From UHGV virus genome UHGV-0126007: a stretch of DNA of 21,383 nucleotides; one strand, given 5' to 3'. Positions within the stretch are counted from its first letter, which is position 1. Every line of letters begins with the position of its first letter. A model generated the notes under the pieces. It was given only the letters and a program-made list of their open reading frames with translations, was not told where the DNA came from and made no database searches. The translations under genes were made by a program, and so were the position numbers. Positions 4,284 to 16,556 of the stretch are shown here, piece after piece. Origin of the DNA: a virus.

Positions 4284-4381
4284 CTTCCATTAATCCCTGA
4301 ATTGTTGGTTAATACGCTTGAGGGTGAATGCGAATAATAAAAAAGGAGCCTGTAGCTCCCTGATGATTTTGCTTTTCATGT

Positions 4382-4673: not shown

Positions 4674-5027
4674 TCATACCTGGTCTCTCTCATCTGCTTC
4701 TGCTTTCGCCACCATCATTTCCAGCTTTTGTGAAAGGGATGCGGCTAACGTGTGAAATTCTTCGTCTGTTTCTACTGGTATTGGCACAAACCTGACTCCA
4801 ATTTGAGCGAGGCTATGTGCCATCTCGATACTCGTTCTTAACTCAACGGGAGATGCTTTGTGCATACAGCCCCCCCATTTATTATTTATCTCCTCAGCCA
4901 GCCGCTGTGCTTTCAGGGGATTTCGGATTACAGAAAGGCCGGGAAATACCCAGCCTCGCTTTGTAACGGAGTAGACGAAAGTGATTGCGCCTACCCGGAT
5001 ATTATCGTGAGGATGCGTCATCGCCAT
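4674..5027 (-). CDS. Hypothetical protein, 117 aa
   Basis: ORF immediately downstream of exo on the minus strand, overlapping the exo 3' end by about 10 nt; no recognisable family. Confidence 0.45.
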
Positions 5028-5698
5028 TGCTCCCCAAATACAAAACCAATTTCAGCCAGTGCCTCGTCCATTTTTTCGATGAACTCCGGCACCATCTCGT
5101 CAAAACTCGCCATGTACTTTTCATTCCGCTCAATCACGACATAATGCAGGCCTTCACGCTTCATGCGCGGGTCATAGTTGGCAAAGTACCAGGCATCTTT
5201 TCGCGTCACCCACATGCTGTACTGCACCTGGGCCATGTAAGCCGATTTTATTGCCTCGAAACCACCGAGCCGGAATTTCATGAAATCCCGGGAGGTAAAC
5301 GGGCATTTCAGTTCAAGGCCGTTGCCGTCACTGCATAAACCATCGGGAGAGCAGGCGGTGCGCATATTTTCGTCGCGATAGATGATCGGGGATTCAGTAA
5401 TATTCACGCCGGAAGTGAATTCAAACAGGGTTCTGGCGTCGTTCTCGTACTGTTTTCCCCAGGCCAGCGCCTTAGCATTAACTTCCGGAGCCACACCGGT
5501 GCAAACCTCAGCCAGCAGGGTGTGGAAGTAGGACATTTTCATGTCAGGCCACTTCTTTCCTGAGCGGGGCTTTGCTATCACGTTGTGAACTTCTGAAGCG
5601 GTGATGACGCCGAGCCGTAATTTGTGCCATGCATCATCCCCCTGTTCGACAGCTCTCACGTCGATCCCGGTACGCTGCAGGATAATGTCCGGTGTCAT
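5018..5698 (-). CDS. exo: Lambda exonuclease (Red-alpha), 226 aa
   Basis: [65 protein letters not shown]...[11 protein letters not shown] matches lambda Exo in sequence and length; start overlaps bet stop. Confidence 0.96.
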
Positions 5699-6480
5699 GC
5701 TGCCACCTTCTGCTCAGTGGCTTTCTGTTTCAGGAATCCAAGAGCTTTCACTGCTTCGGCCTGTGTCAGTTCTGACGATGCGCGAATGTCGCGGCGAAAT
5801 ATCTGGGAACAGAGCGGCAATAAGTCGTCATCCCATGTTTTATCCAGGGCGATCAGCAGAGTGTTAATCTCCTGCATGGTTTCATCGTTAACCGGAGTGA
5901 TGTCGCGTTCTGGCTGACGTTCTGCAGTGTATGCAGTATTTTCGACAATGCGCTCGGCTTCATCCTTGTCATAGATACCAGCAAATCCGAAGGCCAGACG
6001 GGCACACTGAATCATGGCTTTATGCCGTAACATCCGTTTGGGATGCGACTGCCACGGCCCCGTGATTTCTCTGCCTTCGCGAGTTTTGAATGGTTCGCGG
6101 CGGCATTCATCCATCCATTCGGTAACGCAGATCGGATGATTACGGTCCTTGCGGTAAATCCGGCATGTACATGATTCATTGTCCTGCTCAAAGTCCATGC
6201 CATCAAACTGCTGGTTTTCATTGATGATGCGGGACCAGCCATCAACGCCCACCACCGGAACGATGCCGTTCTGCTTATCAGGGAAGGCGTAAATTTCTTT
6301 CGTCCACGGATTAAGGCCGTACTGGTTGGCGACGATCAACAATGCGATGAACTGCGCATCGCTGGCATCACCTTTAAATGCCGTCTGACGAAGAGTGGTG
6401 ATCAGTTCCTGTGGGTCGACAGAATCCATGCCGACACGTTCAGCCAGCTTCCCAGCCAGCGTTGCGAGTGCAGTACTCAT
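5695..6480 (-). CDS. bet: Lambda Bet (Red-beta single-strand annealing protein), 261 aa
   Basis: [66 protein letters not shown]... matches lambda Bet. Confidence 0.96.
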
Positions 6481-6485
6481 TCGTT

Positions 6486-6782
6486 TTATACCTCTGAATC
6501 AATATCAACCTGATGGTGAGCAATGGTTTCAACCATGTACCGGATGTGTTCCGCCATGCGCTCCTGAAACTCAACATCGTCATCAAATGCACGGGTAATG
6601 GCTTTTTTGCTGGCCCCGTGGCGTTGCAAATGATCGATGCATAGCGATTCAAACAGGTGCTGGGGCAGGCCTTTTTCCATGTCGTCTGCCAGTTCTGCCT
6701 CTTTCTCTTCATGGGCGATCTGCTGGTAGTGACGCGCCCAGCTCTGAGCCTCAAGACGATCCTGAATGTAATAAGCGTTCAT
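6486..6782 (-). CDS. gam: Lambda Gam (RecBCD inhibitor), short 98-aa GamS-length form only
   Basis: [98 protein letters not shown] matches the C-terminal 98 aa of lambda Gam. The ORF track shows the frame does not extend upstream to a GamL-type start. Confidence 0.9.
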
Positions 6783-6857: not shown

Positions 6858-7148
6858 TTAGTGATTCAGACCGTTGCCGCGCCCGTCGAGAAAAACTTCC
6901 ACGAGCAAGTCACGGGTATAAGTGCGCTCGATGCCGCGATGCAGATAAAGCCGTCCGCGTAAATTAGCTGATGCAGTCCAGGTACCATCTTTGTGTTTGA
7001 CCAGCATTCCTGGCATGACCGCACCGCGATTAACGGTCTGCGTTCCGTAATGTTGATGAACCATAAAAACTCCTGCCCGTAAGCTGGGCTGCTGAACATA
7101 TAAAGACTTCTGCGCGTATTCAGGCGGTGGATGGCCGCCGGTTGTCAT
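6858..7148 (-). CDS. Hypothetical protein, 96 aa; first gene of the leftward early operon (kil/N position)
   Basis: First ORF downstream of the predicted PL; no arginine-rich motif, no similarity to N, Kil or cIII that I can recognise. Confidence 0.4.
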   Translation of the reverse strand: MTTGGHPPPEYAQKSLYVQQPSLRAGVFMVHQHYGTQTVNRGAVMPGMLVKHKDGTWTASANLRGRLYLHRGIERTYTRDLLVEVFLDGRGNGLNH

Positions 7149-7339
7149 AACTAAGCCGCCTCGTTGAAGCGACTAAGGTATGAAATGTTGAGTTGATTTC
7201 AGCTGGTCACACCGACGTTCACGCGTCCGTTTCATCCCTCGCACTACCCGAAGCCTGCTGAAATTCAAGCTGCGGATCTAAGCGGTCATCGCAACGGTGA
7301 AACAGGTGGTTACCGTATCGTTGTGTCGTTGCGATGAAT

Positions 7340-7420
7340 TTATTTAAAACTATAGTTGTTTTATCGTCAACAACAAAAGTTGTTTTATCGGTTGTTTTAA
7401 ATATAACTGGTTGTATTTAG
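7340..7420 (-). promoter_or_regulatory. PL promoter with OL operators (leftward early promoter)
   Basis: On the minus strand: -35 TTGACG (plus 7365-7370), 17-nt spacer, -10 TTAAAT (plus 7342-7347). Promoter and spacer are nearly identical to the predicted PR (TTGACT-17 nt-TAATCT). Flanked by repeated GTTGTTTTA / AACAAC half-sites similar to the OR half-site GGTTGTT. Confidence 0.6.
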
Positions 7421-7508
7421 GATGGATTTATTTTGTGACTTGCATCGCATAGCGATAACTGAAGTGAGGTCGTGGTGGTTTTTTGAACGGTGTGTGATGA
7501 GGGGAGGG

Positions 7509-7536
7509 CAAAATAAAACCCGGCACGGTGGCCGGG
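7509..7536 (-). terminator. Rho-independent terminator ending the cI-cargo operon (tImm-like)
   Basis: Stem CCCGGC / GCCGGG (7519-7536) with 6-nt loop; on the minus strand it is followed by UUUUAUUUUG. Sits downstream of the 147-aa gene and upstream of PL. Confidence 0.7.
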
Positions 7537-7613
7537 TTTAGATGATTGGTTAAGAGCGAGGGTAATGGGGAATGAAAAATCGCTTTACCTAATGCAAGGG
7601 TGCGAGCATTTTC

Positions 7614-8057
7614 TTAAGCACTAAAGAAAAAGTACATTGATAGCTTATAAAGTCCTGTTCCTGCAGCGATGATTGCTGGAACACCAAGCAATACCGCAAG
7701 CTTTGCGTCTGAAATCTTTCTATCGACAGCATCACTTGATGGCTTGTTTGTTAAGGATTCTTTTATAGAGTCCAGACGTGCAAGAATAGTTATCATATTT
7801 TTGTCGATAGCTTTAACGTCTGTTTTAAGTTCATCAACGTCTCGTTTGATATGAGCAACATCGGACTCCAGTTTTGCAACTTTTTCAGGCATGTTATCAC
7901 TCCCAGACCCACTGCTACCACTTGATTGTAGCATGTCCCATCTTTTTCCAGATATACCTGCTAGCTGGGAAGACGCACTGGAGTGCAAACAAAATGATTT
8001 TGCCGCCTTTGCAATTTTATCATTTAGGTTTGGAGCTTCGTAATAATCGTGTTTCAT
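7614..8057 (-). CDS. Tail-anchored coiled-coil membrane protein, 147 aa (rex-position cargo gene B)
   Basis: Gly/Ser-rich linker (SSGSSGSGSDN), heptad-like coiled coil (KVAKLESDVAHIKRDVDELKTDVKAIDKNMITILARLDSIKESL), C-terminal hydrophobic helix (LAVLLGVPAIIAAGTGLY). Architecture resembles XhlA-type phage membrane proteins (analogy only). AT-rich by eye. Confidence 0.5.
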   Translation of the reverse strand: MKHDYYEAPNLNDKIAKAAKSFCLHSSASSQLAGISGKRWDMLQSSGSSGSGSDNMPEKVAKLESDVAHIKRDVDELKTDVKAIDKNMITILARLDSIKESLTNKPSSDAVDRKISDAKLAVLLGVPAIIAAGTGLYKLSMYFFFSA

Positions 8058-8069
8058 AATTAATTACGA

Positions 8070-8333
8070 TTAGTTTGTTTTAGCTTTGTCATGCTGGTCG
8101 CGAATGAAGTCAGCCAATTTAAGCATCAATTCTTCGGGCATTCTAATGGTTGCAATGTTGTACTTTATGTTCTCAACATCGTCACTTTCATCAACAGGCC
8201 ATTCAGTTACATTATGAAAAAAAGAAATTGAACCTAGGCGCTGAGAGCCGTCACCAAACGAAGAGTAGCCAAACGCGTCGGCGTATGCATCGACACAGTT
8301 ATTTGATTTTTTAACAAGTGTTTTATTACTCAT
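8070..8333 (-). CDS. Hypothetical small soluble protein, 87 aa (rex-position cargo gene A)
   Basis: ORF directly downstream of cI on the same strand and 12 nt upstream of gene B; AT-rich; no recognisable family. Confidence 0.45.
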   Translation of the reverse strand: MSNKTLVKKSNNCVDAYADAFGYSSFGDGSQRLGSISFFHNVTEWPVDESDDVENIKYNIATIRMPEELMLKLADFIRDQHDKAKTN

Positions 8334-8415: not shown

Positions 8416-9105
8416 TTATCCGTGTTTTCTGTACGTCTGCGGCATGCTCCCAATAACCTTACCGAATATGAATACCCGGTTCATCTCGTCTTTCTCGATC
8501 GGGTCCCACGGTGAGTAGCTCTTGTTATCAGAGATAACCAGTAGCTTATCCTTCATCATTTGCAGGCGCTTTACATGGGCGGTGTCGTCATACAGAAACG
8601 CATAGATGCCATCACCGTCGAAAGATTTAACAGTGATATCAACGAACAGCAGGTCACCTGGTTCGATCGTCCCTGACATGCTGTCACCTCGCACGTTAAT
8701 GATGCGGATATTTTCCGCCTTCCTGCCATCGAACATGTGACGAGCATCGTCAAACGAGTACTCAACCGAGCGTAGAACTTCTACAAACTCACGGTTGATT
8801 ACACCTGGCCCGGCACTGACTTCTATATCAAGAACGTCAATTTTGAAGTATTTGGAATGGCTGACAGTTGATTGTATTGGTTGCACTGTACTGTCTGACA
8901 TATTTCCAACGCCAGAAGATAACCATTCTGCGCGTACACCCAAAGCGTTCGCGATCTCCACGATTTTAGTTGTTTGGTTAGCTTTCCCTGTTTCGATTTT
9001 CTGAATAGCAGCCTGGCTAACCCCGACCAAATCCCCAAGCGCCTTTTGTGTAAGGCCTCGCGCTAATCTGGCTTCTTTAAGTCTTTCTGAGAGTGTTGTT
9101 TTCAT
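8416..9105 (-). CDS. CI-like prophage repressor (N-terminal XRE-type HTH, C-terminal S24/LexA-like autopeptidase domain), 229 aa
   Basis: HTH region LTQKALGDLVGVSQAAIQKIETGK; C-terminal domain with the S24 nucleophile motif (NVRGDSMSGTI) and downstream Lys (HVKRL); divergent from a Cro-like gene across an operator region. Confidence 0.85.
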   Translation of the reverse strand: MKTTLSERLKEARLARGLTQKALGDLVGVSQAAIQKIETGKANQTTKIVEIANALGVRAEWLSSGVGNMSDSTVQPIQSTVSHSKYFKIDVLDIEVSAGPGVINREFVEVLRSVEYSFDDARHMFDGRKAENIRIINVRGDSMSGTIEPGDLLFVDITVKSFDGDGIYAFLYDDTAHVKRLQMMKDKLLVISDNKSYSPWDPIEKDEMNRVFIFGKVIGSMPQTYRKHG

Positions 9106-9209
9106 AGATCAAATGTACAACCAAGGTTTTATTTCATCAAACGAAAATGGTTGTTGACTAAAAACAACCATAGTTTTAATCTTGATTCGGATTAACCACG
9201 GAGGTTGTT
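9106..9209. promoter_or_regulatory. OR region: divergent PRM/PR promoters with operators
   Basis: PR: -35 TTGACT (9154-9159), 17-nt spacer, -10 TAATCT (9177-9182). Operator with 9-bp inverted repeat ATGGTTGTT-N7-AACAACCAT (9147-9171) overlapping the -35; SD GGAGG before cro. Confidence 0.65.
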
Positions 9210-9440
9210 ATGAACCCAGCAATCAAAACAGCGATCAATATCGTTGGTTCACAAAAGAAACTAGGCGATGCCTGCGAAGTTTCACAGCAGGCCGTCTATA
9301 AGTGGCTTCACAACAAAGCAAAGGTATCCCCTGAACATGTCGGCAGCATTGTTACGGCTACTGGTGGAGTTGTGAAGGCATACCAGATTCGCCCGGATCT
9401 TCCGAAGTTGTTTCCACACACCGAAAAGAACGCAGCTTAA
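9210..9440 (+). CDS. Cro-like HTH regulator (Cro/YdaS-type), 76 aa
   Basis: Small HTH protein (GDACEVSQQAVYKWL) transcribed divergently from the repressor from the PR-like promoter. Confidence 0.7.
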   Translation: MNPAIKTAINIVGSQKKLGDACEVSQQAVYKWLHNKAKVSPEHVGSIVTATGGVVKAYQIRPDLPKLFPHTEKNAA

Positions 9441-9452
9441 ATTTCCATTTCA

Positions 9453-9465
9453 CGCTCTTTAACAA
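9453..9465 (+). promoter_or_regulatory. boxA-like antitermination element (CGCTCTTTAACAA) in the rightward early transcript
   Basis: Matches the boxA consensus CGCTCTT(T)A and, from recall, nearly the whole rrn boxA (GCTCTTTAACAA) 13 nt after the cro stop; no boxB-like hairpin follows. Confidence 0.5.
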
Positions 9466-9509
9466 TAAGCAATCAACTTAACAGTCAATTCAAACTAAAG
9501 GAGTCAATT

Positions 9510-10135: not shown

Positions 10136-11065
10136 ATGGCAAACACTGCTGAGATATTCAATTTTCCAGTGCCGGATGCGGCACAAAAGGAGCCGCGCGT
10201 GGCAGATCTCGATGATGGTTATACGCGCATTGCAAATGAGTTGCTGGAAGCTGTGATGCTGGCCGGATTAACACAGCACCAGCTTCTGGTCTTCCTGGCT
10301 GTCATGCGCAAAACATATGGCTTTAATAAAAAACTGGATTGGGTGAGCAACGAGCAACTTTCCGAGTTGACCGGGATATTGCCGCACAAGTGTTCTGCTG
10401 CAAAAAGTGTTCTGGTAAAGCGTGGGATTTTTATTCAGAGCGGGCGGAATATCGGCATTAATAATGTGGTCAGTGAATGGTCAACATTACCCGAATCAGG
10501 TAAGAAAAATAAAGTTTACCTGAAAGAGGTAAATTTACCTGAATCAGGTAAGAAAAGTTTACCCAAATCAGGTAAAGGCACTTACCCGAATCAGGTAAAC
10601 ACAAAAGACAAACTAACAAAAGACAATATAAAACCTTATTCGTCCGAGAATTCTGGCGAATACTCTGACCAGCCAGAAAACGACCTTCCTGTGGTGAAAC
10701 CGGATGCTGCGATTCAGAGCGGCAGCAAGTGGGGGACAGCAGAAGACCTGACCGCCGCAGAGTGGATGTTTGACATGGTGAAGACCATCGCGCCATCAGC
10801 CAGAAAACCGAATTTTGCAGGGTGGGCTAACGATATCCGCCTGATGCGTGAGCGTGACGGGCGTAACCACCGCGATATGTGTGTACTGTTCCGCTGGGCA
10901 TGCCAGGACAACTTCTGGTCCGGTAACGTGCTGAGTCCGGCCAAACTCCGCGACAAGTGGACCCAGCTCGAAATCAACCGAAACAAGCAACAGGCTGGCG
11001 TGACAGCCGGCAAACCAAAACTCGACCTGACGAACACTGACTGGATTTACGGGGTGGATTTATGA
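10136..11065 (+). CDS. O: Replication initiator O: non-lambda N-terminal origin-binding domain with lambda-type C-terminal P-interaction domain; the frame is open from 10046
   Basis: N-terminus MANTAEIFNF...VADLDDGYTRIANELLEA...RKTYGFNK follows the lambda O pattern but is divergent. C-terminus WANDIRLMRERDGRNHRDMCVLFRWACQDNFWSGNVLSPAKLRDKWTQLEINRNKQQAGV...DWIYGVDL matches lambda O. Start preferred at ATG 10136 with SD GGGAGGAA. Confidence 0.85.
   Translation: MANTAEIFNFPVPDAAQKEPRVADLDDGYTRIANELLEAVMLAGLTQHQLLVFLAVMRKTYGFNKKLDWVSNEQLSELTGILPHKCSAAKSVLVKRGIFIQSGRNIGINNVVSEWSTLPESGKKNKVYLKEVNLPESGKKSLPKSGKGTYPNQVNTKDKLTKDNIKPYSSENSGEYSDQPENDLPVVKPDAAIQSGSKWGTAEDLTAAEWMFDMVKTIAPSARKPNFAGWANDIRLMRERDGRNHRDMCVLFRWACQDNFWSGNVLSPAKLRDKWTQLEINRNKQQAGVTAGKPKLDLTNTDWIYGVDL
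10487..10640. repeat. ori: Replication origin inside the O gene: four to five ~18-bp iterons plus adjacent AT-rich region
   Basis: Direct repeats TTACCCGAATCAGGTAAG, TTTACCTGAATCAGGTAAG, TTTACCCAAATCAGGTAAA, CTTACCCGAATCAGGTAAA plus a degenerate copy, each with internal dyad TTACC...GGTAA, followed by ACAAAAGACAAACTAACAAAAGACAATATAAAACC; same layout as lambda ori. Confidence 0.85.
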
Positions 11066-13690: not shown

Positions 13691-13741
13691 TTATGTCGTG
13701 ACAGCATAATTGCGATGTCAACGATAAGCAGAGGTTTGAAA

Positions 13742-13936
13742 ATGAAATCACAATCACCAGTGCAGCATGAAGTTAACATCGACGGCAAAGAGTATGTTGT
13801 CACAGTAGTCCAAACCGGCAAGTCAACGTGGAGGGCATGGGGAGATTCCTGGGGGCGCCATATAGTCGAAACAGGTTCTAGCGAACATAGCGCGCTTTCT
13901 CATTGGAAAGCAAAAGCTTTAGTTATGAATGGGTAG
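13742..13936 (+). CDS. Hypothetical small protein, about 64 aa (the frame is open from 13715)
   Basis: ORF with SD-like AGAGG about 9 nt upstream of ATG 13742; no recognisable family. Confidence 0.35.
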   Translation: MKSQSPVQHEVNIDGKEYVVTVVQTGKSTWRAWGDSWGRHIVETGSSEHSALSHWKAKALVMNG

Positions 13937-13949
13937 CGCGGAAACTTTG

Positions 13950-13985
13950 AAGGTATAATCCCCTCAAATAATCGAGGGGGTTTTT
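13950..13985 (+). promoter_or_regulatory. Hairpin (CCCCTC...GAGGGGG + T-run) immediately upstream of the moron start codon, with a TATAAT hexamer just upstream
   Basis: TATAAT at 13953-13958, then stem CCCCTC / GAGGGG with 8-nt loop and TTTTT running into the ATG at 13986; the 3' arm GAGGGGG doubles as the likely Shine-Dalgarno. Confidence 0.45.
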
Positions 13986-14495
13986 ATGTCTGGTTGGGAT
14001 AACGGTATAGATGCAGTTTCTGCGATTGCAGCTATCGCATCTGCGGTAGCAACTTATTTAGCATGGCGATCCTCAGAAGCTAGCAGGGCCACATCCGAAA
14101 AAGCTTTGCAGTTGCAAGGAAAGCAGTATTTGTACGAGACATTAAAAGCTTGCGCTGAGAGAGCGAATTCATACTCAAAAGGAAAGAAAGGGGCTGACTG
14201 GAGCTTTCATGACGCAGCCAATATTGTTCGATGTTTGAACATGGCAATGGGGAGCATAATAAATTACTCAGATACCAACAATCAGGATGCAATGAAAGGT
14301 CTGAAGCAATTCTTTATTAGTCAATTAAACATGGAGCTTTTTGAAGAGCTCAACTATGAGGTTGGGCCTGATGCCTTCTTTCACGGAGAGGAGCTAACCA
14401 GCATGACGAGCGATATTTACTCGCAGTGGTTAAACATTATTTCATTCTTTAACCTCATGATTGTCACAGATGATGACCTCGCCGATGAAACATAG
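13986..14495 (+). CDS. Membrane-anchored protein of unknown function, 169 aa (AT-rich moron in nin region)
   Basis: N-terminal hydrophobic helix (AVSAIAAIASAVATYLAW) followed by about 140 aa of soluble domain; composition visibly more AT-rich than flanking genes; bracketed by a hairpin upstream and a 187-bp non-coding spacer downstream. Confidence 0.55.
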   Translation: MSGWDNGIDAVSAIAAIASAVATYLAWRSSEASRATSEKALQLQGKQYLYETLKACAERANSYSKGKKGADWSFHDAANIVRCLNMAMGSIINYSDTNNQDAMKGLKQFFISQLNMELFEELNYEVGPDAFFHGEELTSMTSDIYSQWLNIISFFNLMIVTDDDLADET

Positions 14496-16087: not shown

Positions 16088-16172
16088 AGTCAGAGATAAC
16101 AATCAACTAATACTGTTTTGTTGATTTTTGCTTGTAATTGGCGTTCTGGTCTGAGTTTTGTGGAGTAAGTTG

Positions 16173-16556
16173 ATGCGTGATATTCAGATGGTTCTTGAGC
16201 GTTGGGGAGCGTGGGCGGCTAATAATCATGAAGATGTGACCTGGTCGTCCATTGCCGCCGGTTTTAAGGGATTAATTCCTTCAAAAGTAAAATCTCGCCC
16301 ACAATGTTGTGACGATGACGCGATGATCATTTGCGGGTGCATGGCCCGTCTGAAAAAGAACAACAGCGATTTGCACGATTTATTAGTAGATTATTATGTA
16401 GTCGGTATGACATTCATGTCACTGGCAGGTAAGCATTGCTGCTCTGATGGTTATATCGGGAAAAGGTTACAAAAGGCTGAGGGCATAATTGAAGGGATGT
16501 TAATGGCATTAGATATCCGGTTAGAGATGGATATCGTTGTTAATAACTCTAATTAA
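16173..16556 (+). CDS. quuD: Late-gene antiterminator Q (phage 82 / DLP12 QuuD type), 127 aa
   Basis: [90 protein letters not shown]... matches QuuD from recall; the ORF-track TTG at 16158 is probably not the real start. Confidence 0.88.

Follow-up and report, generated by a model that had tools for sequence, protein, structure and literature searches.

In the textbook account of lambdoid phages, early regulation depends on the antitermination protein N. Phage lambda reads its early-left (PL) operon with N, and lambda nin5-type derivatives are able to grow without N since the relevant terminators are missing. To our knowledge, the only characterised N-less exceptions use put RNAs. In phage HK022, put acts in cis on the transcribing RNA polymerase, and its activity is blocked by mutations in the zinc-binding domain of the polymerase beta-prime subunit (PMC9378689). 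Lambdoid phages that lack N are routinely assumed to be put-like (e.g. PMC12315714). The subject here is the leader of the PL transcript in the viral genome UHGV-0126007, a lambdoid (pro)phage whose whole stretch of 21,383 nucleotides (nt) was analysed and is referred to below as the window. The interval between PL and kil, the first gene of the operon, is probably the 5' untranslated leader of the early-left transcript in a natural, viable, N-less Bievrevirus-like lambdoid family with a kil-gam-bet-exo operon. The best-supported reading is that of a natural N-independent PL leader, which is composed of a 5' stem-loop, a weakly constrained spacer and an RNA module shared with other phages, and from which the terminator tL1 has been deleted together with N.

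ABSENCE OF N, NUT, PUT AND BOXA

An earlier note on this DNA had described a leader of about 190 nt with neither an N homologue nor an open reading frame (ORF) of 60 amino acids (aa) or more before the first gene. Both absences were borne out: when 30 ORFs, among them nearly every sizeable one in the two early operons, were scanned against PHROG, no N family and no N-like protein came up, and the ORF list contains no ORF of at least 60 aa between PL and position 7148. The length has to be revised. The match to PHROG_294 covers residues 20-96 of a 96-aa ORF, and the conserved Kil core begins at ATG 7064 behind an AGGAG motif; with Kil starting there, the untranslated leader is about 270 nt long, not 190. 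The kil gene is also annotated in phages 4A7 (where it measures 207 nt) and IdasGreatGrand and in E. coli RefSeq records.

The leader (7064-7340) contains no boxA, even when up to three mismatches to the 13-mer are allowed. The suggestion that it works through boxA alone thus lacks support for the leader itself; a boxA is found after cro, in one of the three or more immunity types with this leader. A nutL site would consist of a CGCTCTTA-like boxA followed by a boxB hairpin: boxA is lacking, and inspection of the folds by eye showed no short GC stem capped by a purine-rich pentaloop, no formal search for one having been made. A covariance model of put (R1) was built from HK022 putL, HK022 putR and HK639 putL, which themselves score 73-108 bits, and it assigned 82-90 bits to 11 put loci on which it had not been trained. 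R1 returned no match in the leader and none in 52 loci with the same leader, which speaks against a put-like mechanism in the HK022 sense, and by this model the leader does not contain the conserved two-stem put core (GAACGGC..GUCGG..GGCGGG..AGGA.GA..CAAU). Rfam searches of the leader, both at gathering thresholds and at E<=10, found no meaningful family. This phage and the put phages HK022 and HK639 are all N-less lambdoids with a structured RNA at or near +1 of the PL transcript; however, the best match to R1 in the window scores 16.9 bits as opposed to 73-108, and conservation of the segment is weak.

A number of other candidates were considered and set aside. The 16.9-bit match (10167-10242) was taken as chance because it lies inside the O gene and is without the invariant put core. 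The 'M3-like RNA' of HK639 has no counterpart in the window. For the YdaT/CII-like site TTGATTN6AATCAA (PMC9986795), the leader holds the half-site AATCAA alone with no inverted partner, and for the RfaH ops element GGCGG alone matches by eye. The window contains no second copy of the leader beyond matches of 9-15 nt. Separately, put RNA was observed in the left operon of 11 viral contigs (L143, L147, L148, L151, L154, L165, L173, L183, L189, L193 and L194), with no second put detected in their available DNA; the HK639 record (L218, 3911-3970) annotates its 'M3-like RNA' after cII in the right operon.

THE JUNCTION AND THE MISSING FIRST TERMINATOR

Alignment shows the leader from 7185 to 7117 to be homologous to the phi80 segment that stands right after N and the terminator tL1A, and to post-terminator segments in HK639 and HK225. 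Among 70 distinct contexts of this shared module, most of those without the present leader have a GC hairpin and a T-run directly before CATACC, and two have put there (L147 and L148). In the window the junction reads ...CAACAUUU followed immediately by CAUACC (7186-7183), at the point where a U-tract would end, and most variants are without the U's. Since the leader joins the module exactly at the would-be end of the terminator, N, nutL and tL1 are absent as one unit. The minus strand from 7335 to 5018 holds only weak terminator-like matches (stems of 5-6 bp and interrupted T-runs), and with no strong intrinsic terminator ahead of kil, gam, bet and exo, N would not be needed for those genes.

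The following course of events can be proposed. Transcription would start at about 7335, and the first 50 nt would fold into a stem-loop with its stem at +1. The next 100 nt or so would form a weakly constrained, modestly structured spacer, the site of the mini-ORF discussed below, and from 7190 the transcript would enter the 72-nt conserved RNA module common to N-type, put-type and N-less phages. With the whole N/nutL/tL1 (or put) cassette missing and the leader fused to the module at the would-be terminator end, RNA polymerase from PL would reach kil, gam, bet and exo without meeting a strong intrinsic terminator; N would not be required, and the leader would have no antitermination activity of its own.

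The comparison with described phages is instructive at three points. In lambda (PL-nutL-N-tL1) the slot downstream of the left operators (OL) and PL is the same, as are gam-bet-exo and a terminator further down; in contrast, the window has no N ORF and no boxA or boxB in the leader, and tL1, which makes N necessary, is also absent. The early-left region of phi80 (N-tL1A-segment-kil) has the same 3' third of the leader (7185-7117), including a covarying hairpin, but phi80 itself has a 410-nt leader with an annotated nutL, the N gene and terminators upstream of that segment. As in lambda nin5-type derivatives, N-independence would come about through missing terminators, although here the arrangement is natural, widespread and in the left operon.

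A CONSERVED RNA MODULE AHEAD OF KIL

The module that follows the junction is a conserved RNA structure. Its outer helix (7183-7179/7149-7145, UCAUA/UAUGA) pairs CAU with AUG 7148 and is continued by middle pairs (7177-7176/7152-7151); then come the covarying hairpin A (7174-7166/7162-7154), which holds GAGG, and hairpin B (7139-7135/7127-7123) with the loop CCAUCCA (GGCGG-CCAUCCA-CCGCC). Across 29 distinct variants, pairing is kept in 97.7% of cells and seven pairs change on both sides (59 cells), a level of covariation that none of 500 shuffles reached; slid controls were 29-50% paired. A covariance model built from the module (R2) finds one copy per locus, scoring 75-95 bits in the sense direction and about 21-26 bits in antisense, and it recognises phages outside its training set, namely CobraSix (66 bits) and Salmonella S9-5 (58 bits). 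Further copies are located at L004 2496-2566, L005 2475-2545, L221 1496-1566 and L222 1496-1564. The module is always found in the PL operon, usually right after the first terminator, in N-type (phi80), put-type (HK639, L147) and N-less phages whose hosts belong to the genera Escherichia, Enterobacter, Klebsiella and Salmonella. It has no Rfam family match.

AUG 7148 is a part of this RNA module, and its frame happens to enter kil in the present variant. Here that frame runs into kil without a stop, giving the 96-aa ORF, and in relatives it stops after 10-21 codons. A conserved leader peptide of nine codons (MTTGGHPPP) was rejected because CobraSix keeps the nucleotides and shifts the frame by 1 nt; the sequence after codon 9 also varies in frame and length (10-21 codons, or a fusion to the next gene). 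Similarly, the nucleotide blocks of the distal leader, between the module and kil, are conserved in differing reading frames among relatives.

In some relatives (L139-L194) a run of 5-8 T begins 2-8 nt after hairpin B, and in the HK639 record hairpin B itself is annotated as a terminator; about 9 nt separate hairpin B from the upstream AUG that the outer helix sequesters. The T-run and the sequestered AUG together make a translation- or structure-controlled attenuator for kil and the downstream genes plausible, and from its sequence this is a reasonable hypothesis for what the module may be. It is in any case a candidate regulatory element for kil and other early-left genes.

DISTRIBUTION AND VIABILITY OF THE LEADER FAMILY

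Of 5426 complete E. coli genomes, 2210 (41%) carry the 160-nt 5' leader at 87-100% identity, and it is present in addition in more than 120 IMG/VR contigs and 16 phage records, including 4A7, 4C10 and IdasGreatGrand. All contexts that were inspected show the same order (cI, variable cargo, PL, leader, kil, gam, bet, exo) without N. At least three operator types share the leader, and homology starts essentially at the transcription start. Phages 4C10 and 4A7 respond to SOS induction and give plaques on E. coli C (bioRxiv 10.64898/2026.05.26.727859); both carry the leader at 94.9% identity. The possibility of an N-defective prophage had been raised in the earlier note. Decay of the family through loss of N is refuted because the leader occurs in such a large share of genomes and in isolated phages (at least 16 with the same arrangement), two of which are inducible. 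That the present prophage is itself a decayed, N-deleted remnant is scarcely credible: the absence of N is the one point in its favour and is nothing specific, whereas its PL region matches that of the isolated phages at 96-97% identity and the early and lysis genes are intact (int, xis, exo, bet, gam, kil, cI, cro, a cII-like gene, O, P, Q and the lysis genes).

An N-less arrangement of PL, a leader of 80-230 nt and kil also exists in prophages of Citrobacter, Kluyvera, Enterobacter and Silvania (L131-L137). Their leaders begin with CATCG, a transcript-start motif common to the window, phi80 and HK639, and in some a long hairpin of another, strongly paired kind is present. E. coli-type kil regions (85-100% protein identity) were also noticed in metagenome-assembled genomes labelled Bacillota and Atopobium (L130, L136), and a record named Campylobacter phage CJLB-4 (H107) is 98.8% identical to a lambda-like left operon; these cases probably reflect contamination or mis-binning in public records.

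THE 5' STEM-LOOP AND THE GROUP-SPECIFIC SEGMENT

PL and the right promoter PR were identified by an operator/promoter layout that occurs at both sites: GTTGTTGAC.A.AAACAAC.ATAGTTTTAA is found at 7348-7380 on the minus strand and at PR on the plus strand (9150-9185; about 9147-9185). At PL, a -35 element TTGACG (7370-7365) and a -10 element TTAAAT (7347-7342) are separated by a 17-nt spacer, and +1 is predicted at about A7335. Both promoter and start site are predictions from sequence, a promoter consensus scan having given no flag at PL. The earlier note had placed an inverted repeat over this start, and +1 does fall within the right arm; the repeat and its right arm are as described, whilst the left arm is off by 1 nt and runs from 7286 to 7296 rather than from 7287 to 7297. 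The arms (7286-7296, TCATCGCAACG; 7327-7337, CGTTGCGATGA) are 11 nt long, 100% complementary and 30 nt apart, leaving a stem of 9 bp if transcription starts at 7335. When the leader was dinucleotide-shuffled 1000 times, a perfect inverted repeat of 11 nt or more with a loop not exceeding 60 nt arose in four shuffles; the whole 21-kb window has only four such repeats.

When the leader is folded, the stem is present in both the minimum-free-energy and centroid structures, although for the 5' 152 nt as a whole folding is no stronger than in shuffled sequences (z=-1.22). All three polymorphisms that are common in the 5' arm preserve pairing through wobble, and do so on the transcript strand only (CG/UG 44:43, AU/GU 64:23 and CG/UG 82:5), and no double compensatory changes were found in the stem. 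In three immunity types the -10 element ends 7 nt before the first base of the stem, which is also the predicted +1. The stem-loop would most likely protect the 5' end of the mRNA. The hairpin of the ompA 5' untranslated region was reportedly described by Emory, Bouvet and Belasco in 1992 as a 5'-terminal stem-loop that stabilises mRNA; in such stabilisers the stem begins no more than 0-2 nt from the 5' end, and the leader would resemble them in having a stem at the predicted first nucleotide, with no single-stranded tail, under three promoter variants.

Alternatively, the inverted repeat could act as DNA, as the site of a phage or host protein (for example, an extra operator over +1), rather than as an RNA hairpin. 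The arms do flank the start site, and their pentamer ATCGC/GCGAT recurs in the palindrome ATCGCATAGCGAT at 7445-7457, but a spacing of 30 bp is atypical for a dimer site and there is no resemblance to CI operators. Moreover, variation among immunity types is confined to one arm and always consists of changes that leave G-U pairs on the transcript strand but would give A-C mismatches on the other, and a DNA site is accordingly judged very unlikely. The palindrome itself (ATCGC-ATA-GCGAT) lies upstream of OL and its half-site recurs in both arms of the leader hairpin. A promoter-like sequence, TTGCGA-16-TATAGT (7329-7356, plus strand), has its -35 element in the right arm and is directed into the operators; it may be chance.

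The segment specific to this group of phages comprises the 150 nt from 7337 to 7186. A second hairpin predicted within it (Table 1) is weak as a prediction. Nucleotide diversity in the 5' 152 nt is 0.029, compared with 0.033 in the kil-gam spacer; for kil the values by codon position are 0.0025, 0.010 and 0.058, so that the leader stands at about half the third-position value. Evidence for function in the 150 nt beyond the 5' stem is weak.

THE ARGININE-RICH MINI-ORF

The spacer contains a 20-codon mini-ORF on the minus strand, whose existence and translation are as the earlier note gave them. The arginine-rich start to which that note drew attention is indeed unusual in composition: among 156 short ATG ORFs in the window, no other has five or more arginine or lysine residues within its first 10. 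This invites the idea that the mini-ORF, or a longer product reading through into kil, is translated and serves as a minimal N-like peptide that binds RNA, or that it is the remnant of an N gene. Its TRERR resembles TRRRERR, which forms the core of the arginine-rich motif in lambda N. In 44 of 80 haplotypes no stop interrupts the frame from 7277 to the end of kil, which leads gene callers to annotate a long 'Kil' in some phage records, and it shows a weak excess of third-position diversity (p=0.02 for that frame). Against a functional peptide, neither end of the mini-ORF is conserved: in 88 unique variants the start is ATG in 11 and GTG in 77, the TAG stop is present in 29 and replaced by CAG in 59, and phages both with and without the stop are viable. 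GAGG stands merely 1-2 nt from the start codon, which leaves no usable Shine-Dalgarno spacing. No PHROG match was obtained, and tblastn of the 31-aa frame against 50,697 phages (E<=10) returned only the same 16 phages and no N remnant. Polymorphic sites by codon position number 7:3:7, compared with 1:4:24 in kil; a codon-phase test over any frame is not significant (p=0.06), and counts of synonymous and nonsynonymous changes in the frame are unconvincing. The NusA- and RNA polymerase-binding parts of N are, in addition, missing from any peptide of 20 aa. A peptide of this kind is therefore most improbable. The arginine codons overlie a CG-rich predicted hairpin (7230-7211), and the mini-ORF is most likely not a gene and instead a non-conserved by-product of that hairpin.

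THE DOWNSTREAM TERMINATOR AND ANTITERMINATION

Further down the PL operon lies a strong intrinsic terminator (4361-4343) that is identical, flanks included, to leftward-strand lambda sequence near position 30689, in the interval that separates orf61 from ea22. DE3 and Stx phages, which use N, have the segment at 96-99% identity, and it is also present in the N-less, inducible 4A7. Several observations weigh against a leader that owes its N-independence to the loss of tL1 and nothing else. This lambda-identical terminator is ahead of a DksA-like gene, a queuine-transferase-like gene, xis and int, and three more terminator-like hairpins occur before xis, so that the distal genes would be reached either from other promoters or by partial read-through, or by unrecognised antitermination. 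The group-specific 150 nt fill the exact put slot of L147 and L148, and leader and put are mutually exclusive, put being found in none of 52 leader loci and in 11 of 33 loci. The arginine/lysine content of the mini-ORF and the third-position excess in its frame belong on the same side, and the protective role of the 5' hairpin depends on inference and on a predicted start.

The 150 nt (7337-7186) could thus be a new, cis-acting, processive antiterminator RNA, an analogue rather than a homologue of put, by which polymerase reads through 4361-4343 and the terminators before xis. Its position in the put slot and its mutual exclusion with put are the reasons for which this explanation, unlikely as it is, keeps some weight. 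The segment stands directly after PL and before the module, at the junction to which put is fused in L147 and L148; HK022 putL likewise starts at +3 of its transcript (PMC9378689). Leader, put and N behave as mutually exclusive alternatives, and 4A7 and 4C10 excise and grow in spite of the lambda-identical terminator downstream. HK639-type put phages show put in the left operon alone (in the available DNA), and the missing right-operon copy is hence not disqualifying. On the other hand, there is no likeness to put in sequence or structure, shuffled sequences fold equally well, nucleotide diversity is the same as in another intergenic spacer, and changes in the stem are wobble-compatible with no compensatory double ones. 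The O157 Z1813 immunity type replaces the first 45 nt, and the distal genes could have promoters of their own. Put-type loci share the module alone with the window, which makes a natural swap comparison between leader and put impossible.

It has also to be considered whether boxA and host Nus factors alone, in an rrn-like manner, bring about antitermination without N. A perfect boxA stands after cro (Table 1) and is identical in all 47 loci of the same immunity type, and the spacer between cro and cII, which is found only in same-immunity phages, is weakly colinear with the PL leader. However, there is no boxA in the PL leader, and 4A7/IrN-type phages, which have the same leader and are viable, are without a post-cro boxA and carry a short hairpin (GCCGC-CUAAUCU-GCGGC) there instead. 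Such boxA/Nus complexes, furthermore, suppress Rho-dependent rather than intrinsic terminators, and antitermination of this kind is quite unlikely. A nutR site after cro would combine boxA with a boxB; the 45 nt after this boxA are AT-rich, with no stable, boxB-like hairpin seen by eye. The colinear short matches join the leader (7274-7164, minus strand) to the cro-cII spacer (9431-9494, plus strand) and comprise CGCAGCTTRAATTTC, AATCAACTYAAC and AGTCnnTTCAA, followed in each case by a Shine-Dalgarno sequence and TTATG; their chained score is above all of 2000 shuffles, and they may be a faint echo of related leaders. In the nin region, upstream of ninB and Q, a terminator-like hairpin (13957-13982, plus strand) has a 9-bp stem followed by TTTTTAT, and the surrounding 420 nt (13700-14120) have no match in the 50,697-record phage collection.

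OTHER FEATURES OF THE WINDOW

The features of the window are collected in Table 1. The slot between cI and PL (7614-8333, minus strand; equivalents in L001, L002, L007 and L008) varies by phage, holding two genes of unknown function here, a SIR2 family gene in O157 Z1813 and an ASCH-domain gene in 4A7, and it resembles a variable cargo/defence slot like that of lambda rexAB. A lambda-type boxA 9-mer, CGCTCTTAA (within CGCTCTTAACCAA; 7546-7558, minus strand), lies 6 nt before the strong terminator at 7516-7539. This pair belongs to the cI-cargo operon upstream of PL and has a nut-style look in an unexpected place, or is due to chance. About 100 nt between the terminator of the cI operon and OL (7420-7515) are conserved across differing immunity and cargo types, and the palindrome at 7445-7457 lies within them.

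Table 1. Features of the UHGV-0126007 window, with coordinates on the 21,383-nt stretch.
Feature	Position	Strand	Remarks
int	135-1205	minus	
xis and cargo genes	between int and exo	minus	
Strong intrinsic terminator in the PL operon	4343-4361	minus	8-bp stem and T-run; about 3 kb from PL
exo	5018-5698	minus	
bet	5695-6480	minus	
gam	6486-6782	minus	
kil (KilR-type cell-division inhibitor, 68 aa)	6858-7064	minus	first gene of the PL operon; PHROG_294, E=1e-38
Distal leader	7065-7118	minus	conserved GCGCAGAAGTCTT block; hairpin GCCC-AGCUUAC-GGGC at 7089-7075; Shine-Dalgarno AGGAG at 7074-7070
Conserved structured RNA module	7119-7190	minus	covariation; R2 91.4 bits
Mini-ORF, 20 codons, arginine-rich, MKRTRERRCDQLKSTQHFIP	7173-7235	minus	ATG 7235 to TAG 7175-7173
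Mosaic junction, group-specific leader to conserved module	7183-7186	minus	relatives have the tL1 U-tract there
Predicted hairpin 2 of the group-specific segment	7240-7284	minus	folds; one common polymorphism keeps pairing (UG/CG 27:60)
5'-terminal stem-loop of the PL transcript	7286-7337	minus	perfect inverted repeat
OL operators and PL promoter (predicted)	7342-7410	minus	from sequence; operator repeats D2/I1/I5
cI	8416-9105		terminator 7539-7516 and two cargo genes between the OL region and cI
cro	9210-9440	plus	followed by CII-like/YdaT gene, O, P, ren-like, ninB, rusA, lysis genes
boxA, rrn-type, 13 nt, CGCTCTTTAACAA	9453-9465	plus	perfect (0 mismatches); 12 nt after the cro stop
Q-like	16158-16556	plus	sole antiterminator family found by the PHROG scan

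IMPLICATIONS FOR LAMBDOID PHAGES

What emerges is an abundant, inducible family of E. coli phages without N, without put and without a leader boxA. For the promoter-proximal part of the left operon, the absence of N is most simply explained by the first terminator being absent as well. Further downstream, these phages retain the lambda-identical terminator (4361-4343). If the leader were to prove an antiterminator RNA, it would replace N and nut in the commonest lambdoid prophage family of E. coli and allow PL transcripts to reach xis and int.

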